A stretch of DNA of 10,967 nucleotides from a virus (lineage: Duplodnaviria; Heunggongvirae; Uroviricota; Caudoviricetes), in the IMG/VR virus record IMGVR_UViG_2541047881_000003; one strand, given 5' to 3'. This document shows positions 1-10,266 of this stretch, in pieces. The position numbers and the translations under genes are program-made. How positions within the stretch are numbered: position 1 is the stretch's first letter; each line of letters opens with the position of its first letter. The notes beneath the pieces are model-generated. The model had not been told where the DNA came from, ran no database searches, and saw only the letters and a list, made by a program, of their open reading frames with translations.

Positions 1-1284
1 TTACAGACTTCTGGAAGGTTGCGCAGCTCTTACAACACGCGGTTGATCTTCCGCAGCGTCTTCCAGCGCACTTAAATCACGGTCTTTCACCTCTGGCATT
101 TTCAGCGCAGAGATTAAACCAATCACTGAATATGCCATGATCATAATGGCGATCGGATACCAGGATTCCGTCATGGTGCAGAAAATACCCGCCAGGATAG
201 GACCAAAACCGGAAGCGATAAGACCACCAATTTCTTTAGAAATAGCCATCCGGGTAAAGCGGTTTTTACAGCCGAACATTTCTGCCATGGTAATGTTTTC
301 CAGAGCAAATAATCCCAGCACCGCACAGTTATGAATCACAATCAGTGCAACCATAATGGTGCTCGGGGCATAGCTTTTATCTACAATGATAGAAAGCATT
401 GGCCATGCCAGCACAATCGCGGAGGTATTCATAATAATATACGGGATCCGGCGACCAATTTTATCGGATAACCAACCAAGGAACGGAATGGTCATAAAGC
501 CGAGAATCGAACTGATCATCAATGCATCTGTTGGAATTGCTTTGTTAAACAATAACGTCTGCACTAAATAGCCTGCAAGGAAAGTCTGAATTAACCCGGA
601 GTTACCCGCCTGACCAAAACGCAGCCCTGTTGCCAGCCAGAAGGATTTGCTCTGGAACATGCTACCAGCAGGTGCAGGTTTTGCTGTCGGTTGGTTACTG
701 TCGTTAACCTTCTCAAAGACCGGGCTTTCTTTCAGATTCATACGCAACCAGATAGCAAAGACCATCACGACAACGCTCGCCAGGAACGGTATACGCCATC
801 CCCACGCCAGCAGTTCCTCTTTACTGAGAATGAAGAACATAAAGGCCCAGATTGCCGTTGCGCTCAAGGTTCCGCAGTTAGTTCCCATAGCCACAAATGA
901 GGAGATAATTCCGCGCTTACCTTTTGGCGCATATTCCGCCAGCATCGTACCGGCACCGGAAATTTCCGCACCTGCACCCAACCCCTGAATAATACGCAAC
1001 GTCACCAGCAAGATGGGTGCAAAAACACCAATCTGTGCATAGGTCGGTAACACACCAATTAAGGTGGTACAGATCCCCATCATGGTGATGGTAATAAAGA
1101 GCACTTTTTTACGCCCTATTCTGTCGCCCATTTTGCCGAAAATAAATGCTCCGACAATACGCGCCACATAACCTGCACCGTAGGTTCCCATTGCCAGAAT
1201 TAACGCCATTGCCGTTGATGATTCAGGAAAAAATATTTCATGAAACACTAACGCTGCGCCGAGCGAATATAACTGGAAATCCAT
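1..1284 (-). CDS. ydfJ: MFS transporter of the metabolite:H+ symporter (MHS) family, YdfJ-like; appears N-terminally truncated relative to paralogs such as KgtP/ProP, consistent with a prophage insertion boundary near 1285
   Basis: 427-aa ORF with multiple hydrophobic helices and MHS-like motifs (GKMGDRIGRKK loop, WGWRIPF, LSDKIGRR); stop codon at 1..3; the protein begins directly in the region that aligns to the first TM helix of MHS transporters. Confidence 0.85.
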   Translation of the reverse strand: MDFQLYSLGAALVFHEIFFPESSTAMALILAMGTYGAGYVARIVGAFIFGKMGDRIGRKKVLFITITMMGICTTLIGVLPTYAQIGVFAPILLVTLRIIQGLGAGAEISGAGTMLAEYAPKGKRGIISSFVAMGTNCGTLSATAIWAFMFFILSKEELLAWGWRIPFLASVVVMVFAIWLRMNLKESPVFEKVNDSNQPTAKPAPAGSMFQSKSFWLATGLRFGQAGNSGLIQTFLAGYLVQTLLFNKAIPTDALMISSILGFMTIPFLGWLSDKIGRRIPYIIMNTSAIVLAWPMLSIIVDKSYAPSTIMVALIVIHNCAVLGLFALENITMAEMFGCKNRFTRMAISKEIGGLIASGFGPILAGIFCTMTESWYPIAIMIMAYSVIGLISALKMPEVKDRDLSALEDAAEDQPRVVRAAQPSRSL

Positions 1285-2618: not shown

Positions 2619-2785
2619 ATGTCTCGAATTTTTGCTTACTGTCGGATATCAACGCTGGATCAGACCACCGAAAATCAACGCCGGGAAATCGAAAGTGCAG
2701 GTTTTAAAATCAAACCTCAGCAAATAATCGAAGAACACATTAGCGGCTCAGCAGCAACCAGTGAGCGTCCTGGTTTTAACCGGTT
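2619..2785 (+). pseudogene. pinQ: Pin-type serine recombinase (DNA invertase) 5' fragment, about 55 codons, truncated by IS3
   Basis: N-terminus [29 protein letters not shown] carries the serine-recombinase catalytic motif (Y-x-R-[IV]-S-T-x-x-Q); the reading frame runs into the IS3 left inverted repeat at 2786 and stops inside it. Confidence 0.8.
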
Positions 2786-2841
2786 TGATCTTACCCAGCA
2801 ATAGTGGACACGCGGCTAAGTGAGTAAACTCTCAGTCAGAG

Positions 2842-3150
2842 GTGACTCACATGACAAAAACAGTATCAACCAGTAAAAAACCCCGTAAACAGCATTCGCC
2901 TGAATTTCGCAGTGAAGCCCTGAAGCTTGCTGAACGCATCGGTGTTACTGCCGCAGCCCGTGAACTCAGCCTGTATGAATCACAACTCTACAACTGGCGC
3001 AGTAAACAGCAAAATCAGCAGACGTCTTCTGAACGTGAACTGGAGATGTCTACCGAGATTGCACGTCTCAAACGCCAGCTGGCAGAACGGGATGAAGAGC
3101 TGGCTATCCTCCAAAAGGCCGCGACATACTTCGCGAAGCGCCTGAAATGA
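2842..3150 (+). CDS. insE: IS3 transposase OrfA (helix-turn-helix / leucine zipper)
   Basis: 102-aa [35 protein letters not shown]...; ends 4 nt after the orfB start; slippery A-AAA-G at 3113-3117. Confidence 0.9.
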
Positions 3151-4013
3151 AGTATGTCTTTATTGAAAAACATCAGGCTGAGTTCAGCATCAAAGCAATG
3201 TGCCGCGTGCTCCGGGTGGCCCGCAGCGGCTGGTATACGTGGTGTCAGCGGCGGACAAGGATAAGCACGCGTCAGCAGTTCCGCCAACACTGCGACAGCG
3301 TTGTCCTCGCGGCTTTTACCCGGTCAAAACAGCGTTACGGTGCCCCACGCCTGACGGATGAACTGCGTGCTCAGGGTTACCCCTTTAACGTAAAAACCGT
3401 GGCGGCAAGCCTGCGCCGTCAGGGACTGAGGGCAAAGGCCTCCCGGAAGTTCAGCCCGGTCAGCTACCGCGCACACGGCCTGCCTGTGTCAGAAAATCTG
3501 TTGGAGCAGGATTTTTACGCCAGTGGCCCGAACCAGAAGTGGGCAGGAGACATCACGTACTTACGTACAGATGAAGGCTGGCTGTATCTGGCAGTGGTCA
3601 TTGACCTGTGGTCACGTGCCGTTATTGGCTGGTCAATGTCGCCACGCATGACGGCGCAACTGGCCTGCGATGCCCTGCAGATGGCGCTGTGGCGGCGTAA
3701 GAGGCCCCGGAACGTTATCGTTCACACGGACCGTGGAGGCCAGTACTGTTCAGCAGATTATCAGGCGCAACTGAAGCGGCATAATCTGCGTGGAAGTATG
3801 AGCGCAAAAGGTTGCTGCTACGATAATGCCTGCGTGGAAAGCTTCTTTCATTCGCTGAAAGTGGAATGTATCCATGGAGAACACTTTATCAGCCGGGAAA
3901 TAATGCGGGCAACGGTGTTTAATTATATCGAATGTGATTACAATCGGTGGCGGCGGCACAGTTGGTGTGGCGGCCTCAGTCCGGAACAATTTGAAAACAA
4001 GAACCTCGCTTAG
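3147..4013 (+). CDS. insF: IS3 transposase OrfB (DDE catalytic domain); normally expressed as an OrfAB fusion by -1 frameshift
   Basis: 288-aa ORF in the -1 frame relative to orfA; IS3-family transposase sequence (…[33 protein letters not shown]…[10 protein letters not shown]…). Confidence 0.9.
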
Positions 4014-4174
4014 GCCTGTGTCCATATTACGTGGGTAGGATCAATTGTAAATTCACCTAATTACGAGGACATTGCAGTAGTTGAATTGCAGCTCTGTATT
4101 AGCCTGACAGTGACAGAATGCGATATTGACTCTGTCACAGGTGAAATAGTTTGAATGATTAGCAGTTATGGTGC

Positions 4175-4381
4175 TCAGTCAACCACCAGGGAATAATCCT
4201 TCGAATTCTTATCGTGCTTCACCAACGCTGCCTCAATTGCCCTGAATGCTTCCAGAGACACCTGATGTTCTATACATGCAATTACAACATCCGGGTAACT
4301 CATAGAAATGGTGCTATTAAGCATATTTTTTACACGAATCAGATCCAACGAGAGTTCATCAGCAGATTGTTCTTTATTCAT
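4175..4381 (-). CDS. ynfO: hypothetical small acidic prophage protein (68 aa), YnfO-like by position
   Basis: ORF with GGAG 7 nt upstream of ATG at 4381; sits upstream of and divergent from the ydfO-like gene as in Qin; symbol assigned by synteny, not by sequence recall. Confidence 0.55.
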
Positions 4382-4681
4382 TTTGTCGCTCCATGCGTTT
4401 GCTCGTCATCTAGCGGTTAAAATATTACTTCAAATCTTACTGCATAAAAGAGGAAAAGTATGAAAGTTTGAGTACATCGACCTTACATACATCTGTCGGT
4501 TGCATATCCCTCCTGGATGCCAGCAAGGCTCAATTTTGTTACGCAATCAACACTATTCATCAAAAACAGGCTTAATATTTGACATAAATCATCAACAAAA
4601 CACAAAGAGGTCAGACCAGATTGAAACAATAAACACGATAATGCTAACTACGCGCCATCGTATCACATGGAAGGTTTACCA

Positions 4682-5092
4682 ATGGCTCAGGCTGCCATTT
4701 TTAAAGAAATATTCGATCAAGTGCGTAAAGATTTAAACTGTGAATTATTTTATTCTGAGCTAAAACGTCACAATGTCTCACTTTATATTTACTATTTAGC
4801 CACAGATAATATTCACATTGTGTTAGAAAACGACAACATAGTGTTAGTAAAAGGACTCAAAAAGGTTGTAAATGTTAAATTCTCCAGAAACAAACATCTT
4901 ATAGAGACCTCCTATAATAAGTTGAAATCAAAAGAAATCACATTTCAACAATACAGGGAAAATCTTGCTAAAGCAGGAGTTTTCCGATGGGTTACAAATA
5001 TCCAGGAACACCAAAGATATTACTATGCCTTTGATAACTCATTACTATTTACTGAAAGCATCCAGAAAACTACACAGATCTTACCACGCTAA
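4682..5092 (+). CDS. ydfO: hypothetical prophage protein, YdfO/YbcV-like (136 aa)
   Basis: ORF track frame 4667..5092; ATG at 4682 is preferred because GGAAGG (4669-4674) sits 7 nt upstream; followed by gnsB on the opposite strand as in Qin. Confidence 0.6.
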
Positions 5093-5243
5093 ACCATAAC
5101 GTCCGGCTTCTCTCACTCCTGAGCCGGACTGCATTGGTTTAATAAAAACCATCAACAATTGTGATTTAGATATTCGGAACCATTCAAATATAACAAAACC
5201 CCGTAAAAACGAGGTTTATGGATAAATTTTATTATTGAATACA

Positions 5244-5417
5244 TCAGATTAAATTAATCTTGACATCATAGCTTTCAAGACCCGTCATTTTTTCCCGTGC
5301 GGTAAACTGAATACTGGTAACTTCTTTCCCGGTCTTTTTCTTAAGTTCAATAATTTTTTTTGTTATATATTCAGAAATATCTGCTTCTGCTTTTGTTTTT
5401 AAGTTTTCAATATTCAT
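5244..5417 (-). CDS. gnsB: GnsA/GnsB-family small protein (57 aa)
   Basis: Manual translation of the minus strand gives MNIENLKTKAEADISEYITKKIIELKKKTGKEVTSIQFTAREKMTGLESYDVKINLI, closely resembling GnsA/GnsB (…TGKEV…FTAREKMTGLESYDVKI…); SD AGAGGAA upstream; absent from the ORF track because of length. Confidence 0.8.
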   Translation of the reverse strand: MNIENLKTKAEADISEYITKKIIELKKKTGKEVTSIQFTAREKMTGLESYDVKINLI

Positions 5418-5588
5418 CATTTCCTCTTTTAGTCTGTTATGACTTTCCAGTTACACAGTAAGTCGATTATATGGTGCAAACGTGTAAAAGATAAGATGAA
5501 ACATCGCAATAATCAACATACGATAGTCTAAATTTTACACAAACAGACAAAGAGAATTTTCCTGAATTATCAATACAATAGCATCAAA

Positions 5589-5819
5589 TCAACTCAAGAG
5601 CCTTATTGCTGCTTCCAGAATTTCTTCTGAAGTAACATGTCGATCCGCGGCTACATAAATGACTTTATGATCTCCGGTCAGAGATGGAAACCCTGCGGCC
5701 ATTACAGTAAGGTGTGTTTTTTCGCCATTTGGATATTCACGCATGATGGTGTTAACTCCAGTCATCGCTGGCACTACCACTGCTGGTTCAGAGTTAAAAA
5801 AAACTATGATTTTTTTCAT
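5589..5819 (-). CDS. ynfN: hypothetical prophage protein (76 aa), YnfN-like by position
   Basis: ORF track frame 5589..5861 starts on a TTG; first ATG at 5819 (MKKIIVFFNSEP…) taken as start; lies between gnsB and cspI as in Qin. Confidence 0.55.
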   Translation of the reverse strand: MKKIIVFFNSEPAVVVPAMTGVNTIMREYPNGEKTHLTVMAAGFPSLTGDHKVIYVAADRHVTSEEILEAAIRLLS

Positions 5820-5861
5820 GATGTTACCGTAGTATGTGAGTATCCATCGAATAGATACCAA

Positions 5862-5886
5862 GCAAAAAAGCTCCCGAAGGAGCCTT
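5862..5886 (-). terminator. intrinsic terminator on the minus strand (GGCUCC-UUCG-GGAGCU hairpin followed by UUUUUU), downstream of cspI
   Basis: GC stem with UUCG tetraloop and U-tract read directly on the minus strand; the plus-strand reading also has a downstream T-rich run. Confidence 0.6.
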
Positions 5887-6090
5887 CATTTTCACTTTTT
5901 TAAATCCAACGACAGACGGCTGGCATTTAAGTATTGTGAAATATTATCAAATGTAATCATCATTGATTTACAAAAGATACATTTTGCCCCGAAAGGATTC
6001 ATGTCAGAAACATCAAAAGATGATGTTCTATACTGGGAACCATGACAACACGGGCATCTAAAGTGAATATGGTTTGTAATATTGTCTACC

Positions 6091-6303
6091 TCAAAGCGCC
6101 ACTACATGAACAGCGGCAGGACCTTTAGGTCCGTTCTCAATACCAAATTCAACTTCCTGATTCTCAGTTAATGTTTTGAAATCGTTGCTCTGAATTGCTG
6201 AGAAATGGACAAACACATCTTTGCTGCCATCTTTCGGCGTGATGAAACCAAAACCTTTTTCAGGGTTAAACCATTTCACTAAACCAGTCATTTTGTTAGA
6301 CAT
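6091..6303 (-). CDS. cspI: cold shock protein, CspA family (70 aa)
   Basis: [38 protein letters not shown]… with RNP1 (KGFGFI) and RNP2 (VFVHF) motifs; C-terminal half matches CspI rather than CspA/CspB; long AT-rich leader upstream (6304-6665). Confidence 0.9.
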
Positions 6304-6665
6304 AATTATTACCTTTTGAAGAAATTAGCCCTTGGGCAGAATGGTCCGAAAAAAAATATCAGAGAGAAAAACCAACAAGGAAATCTCAAGAGGTACAAAT
6401 AATAAAATTATAACAATGACTGCTTCAGATAAATTTGTAACAAACCAGAACACCATTAACGCATGATTAACCACCCATAGCAAGGATTACTTTTGTAAAG
6501 AAAAACACAGCAATGAAAGAATAGCTTTATTTATTAATAAAACGTGTCATTCTGATTAAGACCTTTTATCTTACCCTTAAGATTTCAGGAATTTTGGCTC
6601 ATGGAAGAGTCCTTTTTATTTAAATTTTACATTCCGCGATGTAAATGTTCCGATTTAATATTACC

Positions 6666-7689
<1,024 letters not shown>

Positions 7690-7693
<4 letters not shown>

Positions 7694-8001
7694 ATATATT
7701 TATGATGAGGACGCTCGTGCTTATTGGCAGGATTTTCAATCTTAAAGGAGTACTGATGCTGCAGATAAGACTCAACTTTTTCTGACAATTTTTCTGCTAC
7801 TTCCAGGAAGACTTGCCGGACGCTCCTTCTGGCTGCTGCCTCATAAAACTCCAGCGCAGCTCCTTCAACACGGTCCATGGCGACATCCAGGTCAAAAATT
7901 TCACCGTCAAAGCGTTCCTTGTCCTGTAAGGCTACAGTTACCGTAACTTTATTCTCAAAATTACGGACTCCTTTCACAACCAGTTCATAGTCTTGAGTCA
8001 T
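7690..8001 (-). CDS. ydfR: YdfR-like prophage protein of unknown function (103 aa), between holin and endolysin
   Basis: ORF with strong SD (GAGGAGAG) upstream of ATG 8001; translationally coupled to the endolysin; position matches Qin order rrrQ-ydfR-essQ. Confidence 0.7.
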
Positions 8002-8005
8002 TGGA

Positions 8006-8221
8006 TTACTCTCCTCTCGCAGCCTTACGCCTGTCTTCTTTAATCTTGAAATAAAGATTTGTCAGATACGTCAGCAGGCCAAAAACCAGGCTACCCAGCA
8101 CACCGATTGCAGCCCACTGTGACGGAGTTACTTTATCGAGTAACTGTAATGCCCAGAAACCAGCATTACCCGCCGATGTGCCATAGGCAACACCTGTTGT
8201 TAACTTATCCATTGATTTCAT
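8006..8221 (-). CDS. essQ: class II holin, phage 21 S-like pinholin with dual-start motif (71 aa)
   Basis: [71 protein letters not shown]: two TM segments, Met1-Lys2-x-Met4 dual start, charged C-terminus; the ORF-track extension to 8299 is not used. Confidence 0.85.
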
Positions 8222-8441
8222 ATCCTCACCCCGATGTACACGGATGGTGCAATATGTTTGAAAAAGATCGGAGTCTACGGGGTAGTTTTGACAGCACACG
8301 TTGTTCTCAACGGCGCTAAAGAAACATACACATTAAAAATGTGAGTAATTATTTTGAAAGAAAGTCATATATAAAATAATAATACGAGAAATGTTTTCAT
8401 ATTTAGTGTACTGTATACGGCCATTTATACAGGAAAAGCCT

Positions 8442-8612
8442 ATGTCAGAACGTAAAGACTCAAAATCACGCCGTAATTATCTCGTTAAATGTTCCTGCCC
8501 AAACTGCACCCAAGAGTCAGAACACAGTTTTTCAAGAGTACAAAAAGGTGCCCTTTTGATCTGCCCTCATTGCAACAAAGTATTCCAGACAAATCTTAAA
8601 GCTGTAGCCTGA
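8442..8612 (+). CDS. ynfU: small zinc-ribbon protein (56 aa) with CxCPNC…CPHC motif; possibly YnfU-like
   Basis: ORF track frame 8391..8612; ATG 8442 has AGGA 7 nt upstream; four-cysteine Cys-x2-Cys…Cys-x2-Cys arrangement; symbol is a tentative recollection. Confidence 0.45.
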   Translation: MSERKDSKSRRNYLVKCSCPNCTQESEHSFSRVQKGALLICPHCNKVFQTNLKAVA

Positions 8613-8670
8613 TTGATTTTATTAGTAACAAGTATTTTTTATATTTTAATAATATATTTAAAGCAGATAA

Positions 8671-8694
8671 TAAAAAACCCGCCTGTGCGGGTTT
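8671..8694 (-). terminator. intrinsic terminator (ACCCGC-CUGU-GCGGGU hairpin with U6 on the minus strand); weaker on the plus strand downstream of the zinc-ribbon ORF
   Basis: Inverted repeat cccgc/gcggg with 4-nt loop, flanked by an A-run on the plus strand (T-run on minus). Confidence 0.55.
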
Positions 8695-9035
8695 GAGATT
8701 GTGGTGCTTTTTGTGGGAGTCATCCACTTACGCACTTTGTTTTGCGATGCCAGCAGTTAGCTTCTGCTGTGAAACTATTCATGCAGCAAACCTGCACTTC
8801 ACCACAATGGTTAGCATACTTTTCCTGATTAAGATTTTGCCAAATATGCTAGCCATTGTTTCATGTATTGGACCTCCTTACTTTTTATTAAAGAGATCCA
8901 ATATTCACTACTCTGTCCGTATCTCTACTCAGGCATCAGCCTTCTTCGTTATCGTATACAGACGAGCGATGAATTTTAATCAGTAATGATGACATTTGCT
9001 GCTGCAGGACCTTTAGCACCACTCTCTATAGAGAA

Positions 9036-9044
9036 GGTAACCTT
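9036..9044. repeat. IS1 target-site duplication, left copy (GGTAACCTT)
   Basis: Identical 9-mer immediately flanks both IS1 ends. Confidence 0.85.
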
Positions 9045-9099
9045 GGTGATGCTGCCAACTTACTGATTTAGTGTATGATGGTGTTTTTGAGGTGCTCCA

Positions 9100-9375
9100 G
9101 TGGCTTCTGTTTCTATCAGCTGTCCCTCCTGTTCAGCTACTGACGGGGTGGTGCGTAACGGCAAAAGCACCGCCGGACATCAGCGCTATCTCTGCTCTCA
9201 CTGCCGTAAAACATGGCAACTGCAGTTCACTTACACCGCTTCTCAACCCGGTACGCACCAGAAAATCATTGATATGGCCATGAATGGCGTTGGATGCCGG
9301 GCAACTGCCCGCATTATGGGCGTTGGCCTCAACACGATTTTACGTCACTTAAAAAACTCAGGCCGCAGTCGGTAA
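9100..9375 (+). CDS. insA: IS1 InsA (transposition regulator, zinc finger/HTH)
   Basis: 91-aa [43 protein letters not shown]…. Confidence 0.9.
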
Positions 9376-9797
9376 CCTCGCGCATACAGCCGGGCAGTGA
9401 CGTCATCGTCTGCGCGGAAATGGACGAACAGTGGGGCTATGTCGGGGCTAAATCGCGCCAGCGCTGGCTGTTTTACGCGTATGACAGGCTCCGGAAGACG
9501 GTTGTTGCGCACGTATTCGGTGAACGCACGATGGCGACGCTGGGGCGTCTTATGAGCCTGCTGTCACCCTTTGACGTGGTGATATGGATGACGGATGGCT
9601 GGCCGCTGTATGAATCCCGCCTGAAGGGAAAGCTGCACGTAATCAGCAAGCGATATACGCAGCGAATTGAGCGGCATAACCTGAATCTGAGGCAGCACCT
9701 GGCACGGCTGGGACGGAAGTCGCTGTCGTTCTCAAAATCGGTGGAGCTGCATGACAAAGTCATCGGGCATTATCTGAACATAAAACACTATCAATAA
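9294..9797 (+). CDS. insB: IS1 InsB (transposase catalytic part; expressed as InsAB' by -1 frameshift)
   Basis: 167-aa ORF in the -1 frame relative to insA; A6C slippery run at 9351-9357. Confidence 0.9.
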
Positions 9798-9812
9798 GTT
9801 GGAGTCATTACC

Positions 9813-9821
9813 GGTAACCTT
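9813..9821. repeat. IS1 target-site duplication, right copy (GGTAACCTT)
   Basis: Identical 9-mer immediately flanks both IS1 ends. Confidence 0.85.
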
Positions 9822-10266
9822 TTGACCTTCAAATAAGGTTCGATAATTATCATTCTGAATCGCAGAAAAATGCACAAACACATCTTTACTACCATCAACA
9901 GGAGAAATAAAGCCGAAACCTTTATCAGCGTTAAACCATTTTACTAAACCAGTCATTTTATTTGACATTCTACATTCCTTAACTTGAGCCTTTCGGCATA
10001 AATGGTTTGCATAACAGAAACGACTTCGTACTTAATTGGAGAGACTCAAAGAAGGAATAAGTGAATAACACCTGAAATGAGAACTGCTTTAGTAAACTAC
10101 TTCGTATATCGTCTGTTCTTCAAACCGACGCAGTCATTAACTCATAGTTGAACATATGAAGCAATGTTTATTTTAGACATCCAGCCACCTTCAATCCTAT
10201 CAAAAAAGTAGTTTTCTCCAGGAACGTGTGTATGGTGCACCAGGTTATCAGTATTAAGGAGTTTTT

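Follow-up and report, generated by a model that had tools for sequence, protein, structure and literature searches.

Why does a complete copy of IS3 in this prophage lack a target duplication, and what once stood between the two sequences that it now joins? The window, by which we mean the whole stretch of 10,967 nucleotides that was analysed, covers the end nearest attR of a lambdoid prophage of the Qin/Tritos type, integrated in ydfJ of Escherichia coli. The prophage boundary lies at about position 1276: the base matching window 1276 is the first of the Qin feature in K-12, and the alignment to phage Tritos also begins there. In the alignment to reference loci, the left flank of IS3 (1-2785) is collinear with K-12 ydfJ'-ynfT-ydfK-pinQ at 99.25% identity. 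K-12 Qin and Tritos, the latter a siphovirus of E. coli LF82 that forms plaques and of which virions have been imaged (PMC9928086), share with the window the integration in ydfJ, the ynfT-ydfK-pinQ end and the arm ydfO-gnsB-ynfN-cspI-rzpQ-rrrQ-ydfR-essQ-cspB. However, K-12 Qin has a nohA'-stfQ'-tfaQ remnant and ynfO where the window has a 55-codon ORF (orf55) and a ybcW-like gene. Tritos is complete, whereas the window is without the whole block and has IS3 plus an IS1 in cspB. The features around IS3 are given in Table 1.

Table 1. Features of the window at and around the IS3 copy, with positions counted from the first base of the window.
Feature	Position	Strand	Remarks
Host gene ydfJ, cut by prophage integration	1-1284	-	99.25% identity to K-12
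pinQ 5' fragment, 167 nt (55 codons + 2 nt)	2619-2785	+	From alignment to K-12; the frame runs on into IS3 as a 61-aa ORF and stops at 2804
Left flanking triplet GTT	2783-2785		Native pinQ sequence
Complete IS3, 1258 bp	2786-4043	+	IRL from 2786; IRR ends at 4043
IS3 orfA	2851-3150		HTH_Tnp_1 domain
Slippery site A-AAA-G (AAAAG), -1 frameshift	3113-3117		orfA/orfB ATGA overlap at 3147-3150
IS3 orfB	3147-4013		rve (DDE) integrase core; also rve_2/HTH_21
Right flanking triplet ATT	4044-4046		Native cos-proximal sequence; presumed target of the primary IS3 insertion, recurrent IS3 target
3' remnant of 55-codon phage ORF (codons 20-55 + stop)	4044-4154	+	phrog_4035; broken by IS3
68-aa YbcW / lambda-p79-like gene	4175-4381	-	phrog_657 over full length, E 5e-47; annotated YbcW in Tritos
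ydfO/ybcV-like DUF1398 gene	4667-5092	+	K-12 Qin homology from 4604

Further along the right arm, the IS1 (768 bp, window 9045-9812, with the 9-bp duplication GGTAACCTT) splits cspB near codons 50-52. Considered as a lineage marker, the IS1-in-cspB junction is shared by no complete E. coli genome in the collection. Thermoregulator leaders of the cspA type (RF01766), at 6064-6449 and 9801-10129, both on the minus strand and scoring 113 and 117 bits, precede cspI and the cspB that IS1 disrupts. Compared with K-12, 258 bp are missing at window 10468/10469, between cspF and ydfT, and ynfS with them. Strain 41, ATCC 25922 and 99COLEC have this gap too, and their cspF carries the annotation of a frameshifted pseudogene.

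The earlier note on this DNA had described the IS3 copy as complete, and its length, domains, repeats and slippery site bear this out. The terminal inverted repeats are imperfect (28/40 matches, TGATC...GATCA), and the element is 100% identical to the copy in strain 160-11H1, with 1 mismatch to that of REL606 and 2 to that of A30. It thus resembles the IS3 of E. coli in its length, its 0-2 mismatches to chromosomal copies, its inverted repeats, its orfA/orfB arrangement, its frameshift site and its rve domain. The difference is that the window copy is without a 3-bp duplication, while other copies have CCA (160-11H1), ATT (N51, EC931) or GTC (EC21Z-063). The flanking triplets do differ, as had been read from the sequence: GTT precedes IS3 and ATT follows it. 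Two unlike triplets are the default expectation (63/64), so the mismatch alone is not evidence, and the case for a deletion rests on comparative mapping. Our method detects duplications where they are present, since it recovered those of two positive controls for simple insertion, the window IS1 and the 160-11H1 IS3 in the 3' end of pinQ. The missing duplication is a trait of the insertion event and not of the element, and it is accounted for by a deletion.

On the left side, IS3 abuts nucleotide 167 of pinQ, which agrees with the earlier statement that this flank ends at about codon 55 of a Pin-type invertase. Uninterrupted pinQ reads ..CCGGTT/GCTTGC at the position of the left junction (marked by the slash). 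The 61-codon pin' ORF covers only positions 1-54 of 145 of the Pfam Resolvase profile and has no DNA-binding domain, and its proper annotation is that of a pseudogene. Of pinQ, the 3'-terminal 424 nt are among the DNA missing from the window. In the alignment to reference loci, the 3' part of pinQ, tfa, stf and terminase sequence were absent throughout the window; past IS3 there is nothing that resembles pin or a tail-fibre gene.

On the right side, the uninterrupted cos-proximal region reads ..GGACGAT/ATTGTAAA at the position of the junction. The 55-codon ORF broken here is intact in ATCC 25922 (locus L006, 893-726), where it comes with a Shine-Dalgarno sequence and aligns to phrog_4035 at 55/55 positions (E 4e-41). 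The right junction lies 440 bp from the small-terminase gene of ATCC 25922 and matches a lambda position 427 bp from the right cohesive end. At least 40 complete E. coli genomes match sequence 4044-4603 at 100% identity, and 402 genomes do so at 99% or above; it has 99.8% identity to Tritos and 87% to lambda 47532-48075, the extreme right of the lambda map. No lambda cosN motif with up to 2 mismatches was found in the deleted intergenic region, and the exact cos position of this phage type was not located. The inverted repeat CCTGACAGTGACAGA...TCTGTCACAGG, at window 4103-4141 in the 3' end of the 55-codon ORF, is conserved, also in lambda, and could terminate transcription between orf55 and the ybcW-like gene, which converge there.

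The right flank had been said to run into a ynfO-like gene, which our results do not support. The 68-aa product gives no BLASTP alignment to K-12 YnfO at E<=100 and no Pfam match, to DUF3950 or otherwise, and the DNA around its gene is homologous to lambda 47532-48075. The ynfO-like label was therefore dropped, and the gene should be annotated as ybcW-like in line with its phrog_657 and YbcW assignments. Sequence 4044-4603 is not present in K-12 Qin at all; K-12 homology picks up at 4604 with the last 20 nt of ynfO and continues from ydfO onward. K-12 was discarded as a template for the right flank for this reason. K-12 Qin has itself undergone deletion and differs in its right arm, which makes it a poor comparator and misleading as a template for the IS3 region. 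The comparison with the K-12 Qin interval that the earlier note had recommended held on the left, up to pinQ nucleotide 167, and failed on the right.

The relatives examined show what lies between the two flanks. ATCC 25922, 99COLEC, Tritos and strain 41 all have the two flanks in collinear order, pointing the same way and 3.5-24 kb apart: they are separated by 24,020 bp in ATCC 25922, 24,000 bp in 99COLEC, 23,575 bp in Tritos (245 bp at the right end of the record plus positions 1-23,330) and 3,509 bp in strain 41. An inversion instead of a deletion was considered and excluded, because both flanks keep the relative orientation of intact prophages. The ATCC 25922 interval holds the cos-side intergenic region and the genes for the DUF1441 small terminase, the large terminase, the portal and a protease-capsid fusion, together with tail genes, J, lom, a tail-fibre gene of 3.4 kb, tfaQ and the 3' part of pinQ. 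The full structural module is kept in 99COLEC, whose phage-side left flank is 100% identical, and in genomes with a right flank of 99.94-100% identity, including ATCC 25922. Compared with intact relatives, the window is thus missing the cos region, both terminases, portal, capsid, tail, J, lom, the tail-fibre and tail-fibre assembly genes and most of pinQ. The expectation that a K-12-type tfaQ-stfQ-nohA-ynfO remnant had stood here must be revised, as the nearest relatives carry the whole morphogenesis module and cos. Strain 41, SI-NP020, SW071614 and K-12 are relatives that were degraded independently, each differently. Given such partly eroded relatives, or a partly eroded ancestor, the step that made the junction may have removed less than 24 kb.

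Because the triplets are native to their own flanks, and the flanks are collinear but apart in relatives, the sequence comparison supports an event other than a simple insertion, as the earlier note had proposed. The junction has the features of an IS-mediated deletion, i.e., an intact IS, co-oriented flanks that are separated in relatives and a native triplet on each side. We assign a probability of roughly 0.85 to the reading that IS3 inserted and that an IS3-dependent loss of ~24 kb between pinQ nucleotide 167 and orf55 followed.

The two arms of the window do not have a common closest genome. 99COLEC is 100% identical on 1285-2785 and 99.4% on 4044-9044, while strain 41 and ATCC 25922 reach 99.94-99.96% on the right arm and 98.5-98.8% on the left. 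Judged by these identities, the prophage is a mosaic. That no genome is best on both arms (99COLEC on the left; strain 41 and ATCC 25922 on the right) could also mean that recombination within IS3 between two Qin-like prophage alleles, e.g., after horizontal transfer, joined the arms. However, E. coli prophages are commonly mosaic, and this calls for no crossover within IS3. In addition, the element has no hybrid polymorphism pattern and is identical throughout to the 160-11H1 copy, although such a pattern would be uninformative here, with 0-2 differences between copies. An intermolecular origin of the junction is therefore improbable.

The IS3-dependent deletion would most likely have taken two steps. 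IS3 would have inserted into the ATT triplet of a cos-proximal hot spot, making a 3-bp duplication, and a second IS3-dependent event would then have deleted the DNA leftward up to pinQ. For this second event there are two routes: IS3 could have hopped locally into pinQ, after which the resident and the new copy, in direct orientation, recombined homologously, or the transposase could have made an adjacent deletion starting at the left end of the IS. In either case the whole IS3 would be retained with one native triplet per side, hence no duplication, and the product fits copy-copy recombination and one-copy adjacent deletion alike.

IS copies lacking duplications have been explained in these same terms, by recombination between copies or by adjacent deletions (PMC11708052). 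In the long-term evolution experiment, 14/14 deletions involving IS150 (IS3-family) arose beside a pre-existing copy, and they often grew with time (PMC11708052). Most IS-associated deletions in mutation-accumulation lines join an existing copy to a new one nearby, so that the recombination route predominates there (PMC5009759). However, IS3 itself transposed rarely in those lines and gave 0 recombination deletions, which counts against the deletion reading (PMC5009759). The window resembles the IS150, IS1 and IS5 deletions of the evolution and mutation-accumulation experiments in that an intact IS lies at the junction, there is no duplication and the collinear flanks are separated in relatives. 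It differs in that the event was reconstructed from natural variation and not watched, and in that IS3 was rarely active in those experiments.

The window junctions were searched for with 291-bp queries in 5,426 complete E. coli genomes and with 30-mers in species-representative genomes and metagenome contigs; their complementary half-sites are ..GGACGATATT-IS3 and IS3-GTTGCTTGC. Neither the window junctions nor the postulated intermediate were found in these three collections, and we therefore infer both which step came first and how long the ancestral interval was. A simple insertion at the exact window site, GAT[ATT]-IS3-[ATT]GTA, was not found either; the sister site 7 bp off has one (N51, EC931). 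The flanks joined without IS3, i.e., pinQ nucleotide 167 followed by GTAAATTCACC, were absent from the three collections, and no searched genome had the flanks contiguous.

These searches bear on the idea that IS3 entered the junction of an earlier, IS-independent deletion and that its 3-bp duplication later decayed. GTT and ATT differ at one position only, and an IS-independent deletion of the module is seen in strain 41. However, both triplets are exactly native in intact relatives, so decay would need a substitution that restored the native base. It would also need a prior deletion ending precisely at a triplet used independently by other IS3 copies, and the IS-free joined junction was not found. 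We consider this history extremely improbable. An assembly artefact, in which two real IS3 copies in pinQ and near cos were collapsed and the 24 kb between them dropped, would give a sequence of identical appearance. Yet the contig spans both the 1258-bp IS3 and the 768-bp IS1 cleanly, the latter with a correct 9-bp duplication, as is typical of long-read or finished assemblies, and analogous structures exist in the real genomes REL606 and A30. This makes an artefact very unlikely.

The right end of the proposed deletion coincides with a site that IS3 has used repeatedly. At window 4044-4053, at least three independent IS3 events (the window, A30 and a group of 16 genomes) fall on two ATT triplets that lie 7 bp from each other, and both orientations of the element are represented. 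In strain A30, an inverted IS3 abuts the same nucleotide as in the window (..AAGATCA/ATTGTAAATT; locus L013, 1539/1540), and 1,146 bp are missing to its left, reaching the large-terminase gene. Descent of A30 and the window from one ancestral insertion was considered and dropped, because opposite IS3 ends abut the same flank. The 16 genomes, which include REL606 and ATCC 8739, have an IS3 in the window orientation 7 bp further right, in a flank that is only ~83% identical.

Both simple insertions and deletions are found at this second triplet. N51 (L018) and EC931 (L019) carry the simple insertion GTAA[ATT]-IS3-[ATT]CACC, with junctions at 1386/1387 and 2644/2645, and this left junction is common to six genomes. 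The terminase genes lie immediately left of IS3 in both strains; DUF1441 is complete, and the large-terminase gene, a pseudogene in EC931, extends beyond both fetched loci. REL606 (L001, 7144/7145) has the same right junction as N51 and EC931, but on its left IS3 borders a J remnant; ~17.6 kb are missing and there is no duplication. In F11, a 5'-truncated IS3 adjoins a tail-fibre remnant. N51/EC931, REL606 and F11 form an extant series that leads from insertion to leftward deletions. The leftward deletions at the site measure 1.1 kb, about 17.6 kb and, in the window, about 24 kb.

The Qin remnant of the REL606/BL21 type, with IS3 beside its ybcW-like gene, is a close parallel to the window in the orientation of IS3, in its place 7 bp off in the same 55-codon ORF, and in the loss of the structural genes to the left. 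It is nevertheless an independent event, with a flank of ~83% identity, a left end in a J remnant and not in pinQ, and ydfO missing. In REL606 (L001), direct IS3 copies at 5887-7144 and 13440-14283 bracket the ybcW-like-to-essD part of the Qin remnant, and this segment could itself be deleted by recombination. Two further IS3 copies, in Qin-like prophages, lie to the right of the site. In EC21Z-063 (L020, 2477-3734), IS3 is a simple insertion 134 bp further right, at the stop codon of the ybcW-like gene, with a GTC duplication. In DAX4 (L021, 2823-4080), it lies ~460 bp further right, an estimate from an alignment of 73% identity, and has no duplication; here a rightward deletion has placed the right flank in ynfN.

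Targeting to a sequence that resembles an IS end, in the style of IS911, was also considered for the recurrent site and rejected, since the best match of the region to the IS3 ends, 15/30, was reached by 63% of background stretches. On balance, we lean towards reading the 8-bp stretch GAT[ATT]GTAA[ATT]CACC, in a conserved 55-codon ORF beside cos of lambda/Qin/Tritos-type phages, as a genuine IS3 hot spot, at which IS3 would repeatedly initiate the loss of the packaging and morphogenesis genes.

The two steps might also have occurred in the reverse order, with the primary IS3 in pinQ, GTT duplicated, and a deletion running rightward to the cos-proximal hot spot through the right end of the IS or a hopped copy. 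The symmetrical product would fit equally well, and a hot spot would draw the second transposition too. Moreover, 160-11H1 has its IS3 in the 3' end of pinQ, and three further genomes have an IS3 placed only to within a few hundred bp of pinQ. However, the hot-spot junction is constant in A30, REL606 and F11 while the other end varies, duplicated simple insertions at the hot spot exist (N51, EC931), and IS3 is found at pinQ nucleotide 167 in 0 of the 5,426 genomes. The reverse order is thus a possible but rather doubtful account, and we favour an initial insertion beside cos followed by leftward deletion.

The earlier note had further proposed that the event removed an invertible tail-fibre segment together with its recombination sites. 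PinQ belongs to the resolvase/invertase family and lies beside tail-fibre genes in intact relatives, as in the Din-family switches (e14 Pin, Mu Gin, P1 Cin). Regions between stf and pin were scanned with the Din-family crossover consensus, using the e14 P segment as control, where both sites were recovered at 18/24 matches. In K-12 Qin, ATCC 25922 and Tritos, the scan of the stf-pin region gave no crossover site with at least 16/24 matches, and the stf-pin regions of these three had no strong inverted repeats. Each of them has one set of tail-fibre and tail-fibre assembly genes, in one orientation. In contrast to the known switches, these relatives are without a pair of inverted 26-bp crossover sites or an alternative cassette. 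A Din-type system also needs a full-length serine invertase, and the Pin of the window is left with 55 codons. With no crossover sites or inverted repeats in the relatives, there is therefore no evidence of an invertible switch to lose. The lost invertible segment was dropped as an explanation, the intact relatives having neither crossover sites nor inverted cassettes while the e14 control was positive.

This copy of the prophage is defective, because it is without cos, terminase, head and tail genes and Pin. It is unable to package DNA or build virions, and Pin is inactive. Collectively, our results describe ordinary IS-mediated prophage decay, a process that is well understood, and their significance is mostly at the level of annotation. 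The one point of broader interest is that IS3 has repeatedly chosen the same few bases beside cos in separate E. coli lineages, in each case with subsequent loss of virion genes. If the cos-proximal hot spot is genuine, it would be a repeatable route by which Qin/Tritos-type prophages become grounded, and, once confirmed, it would provide a small, concrete case of site-biased, IS-driven prophage domestication.
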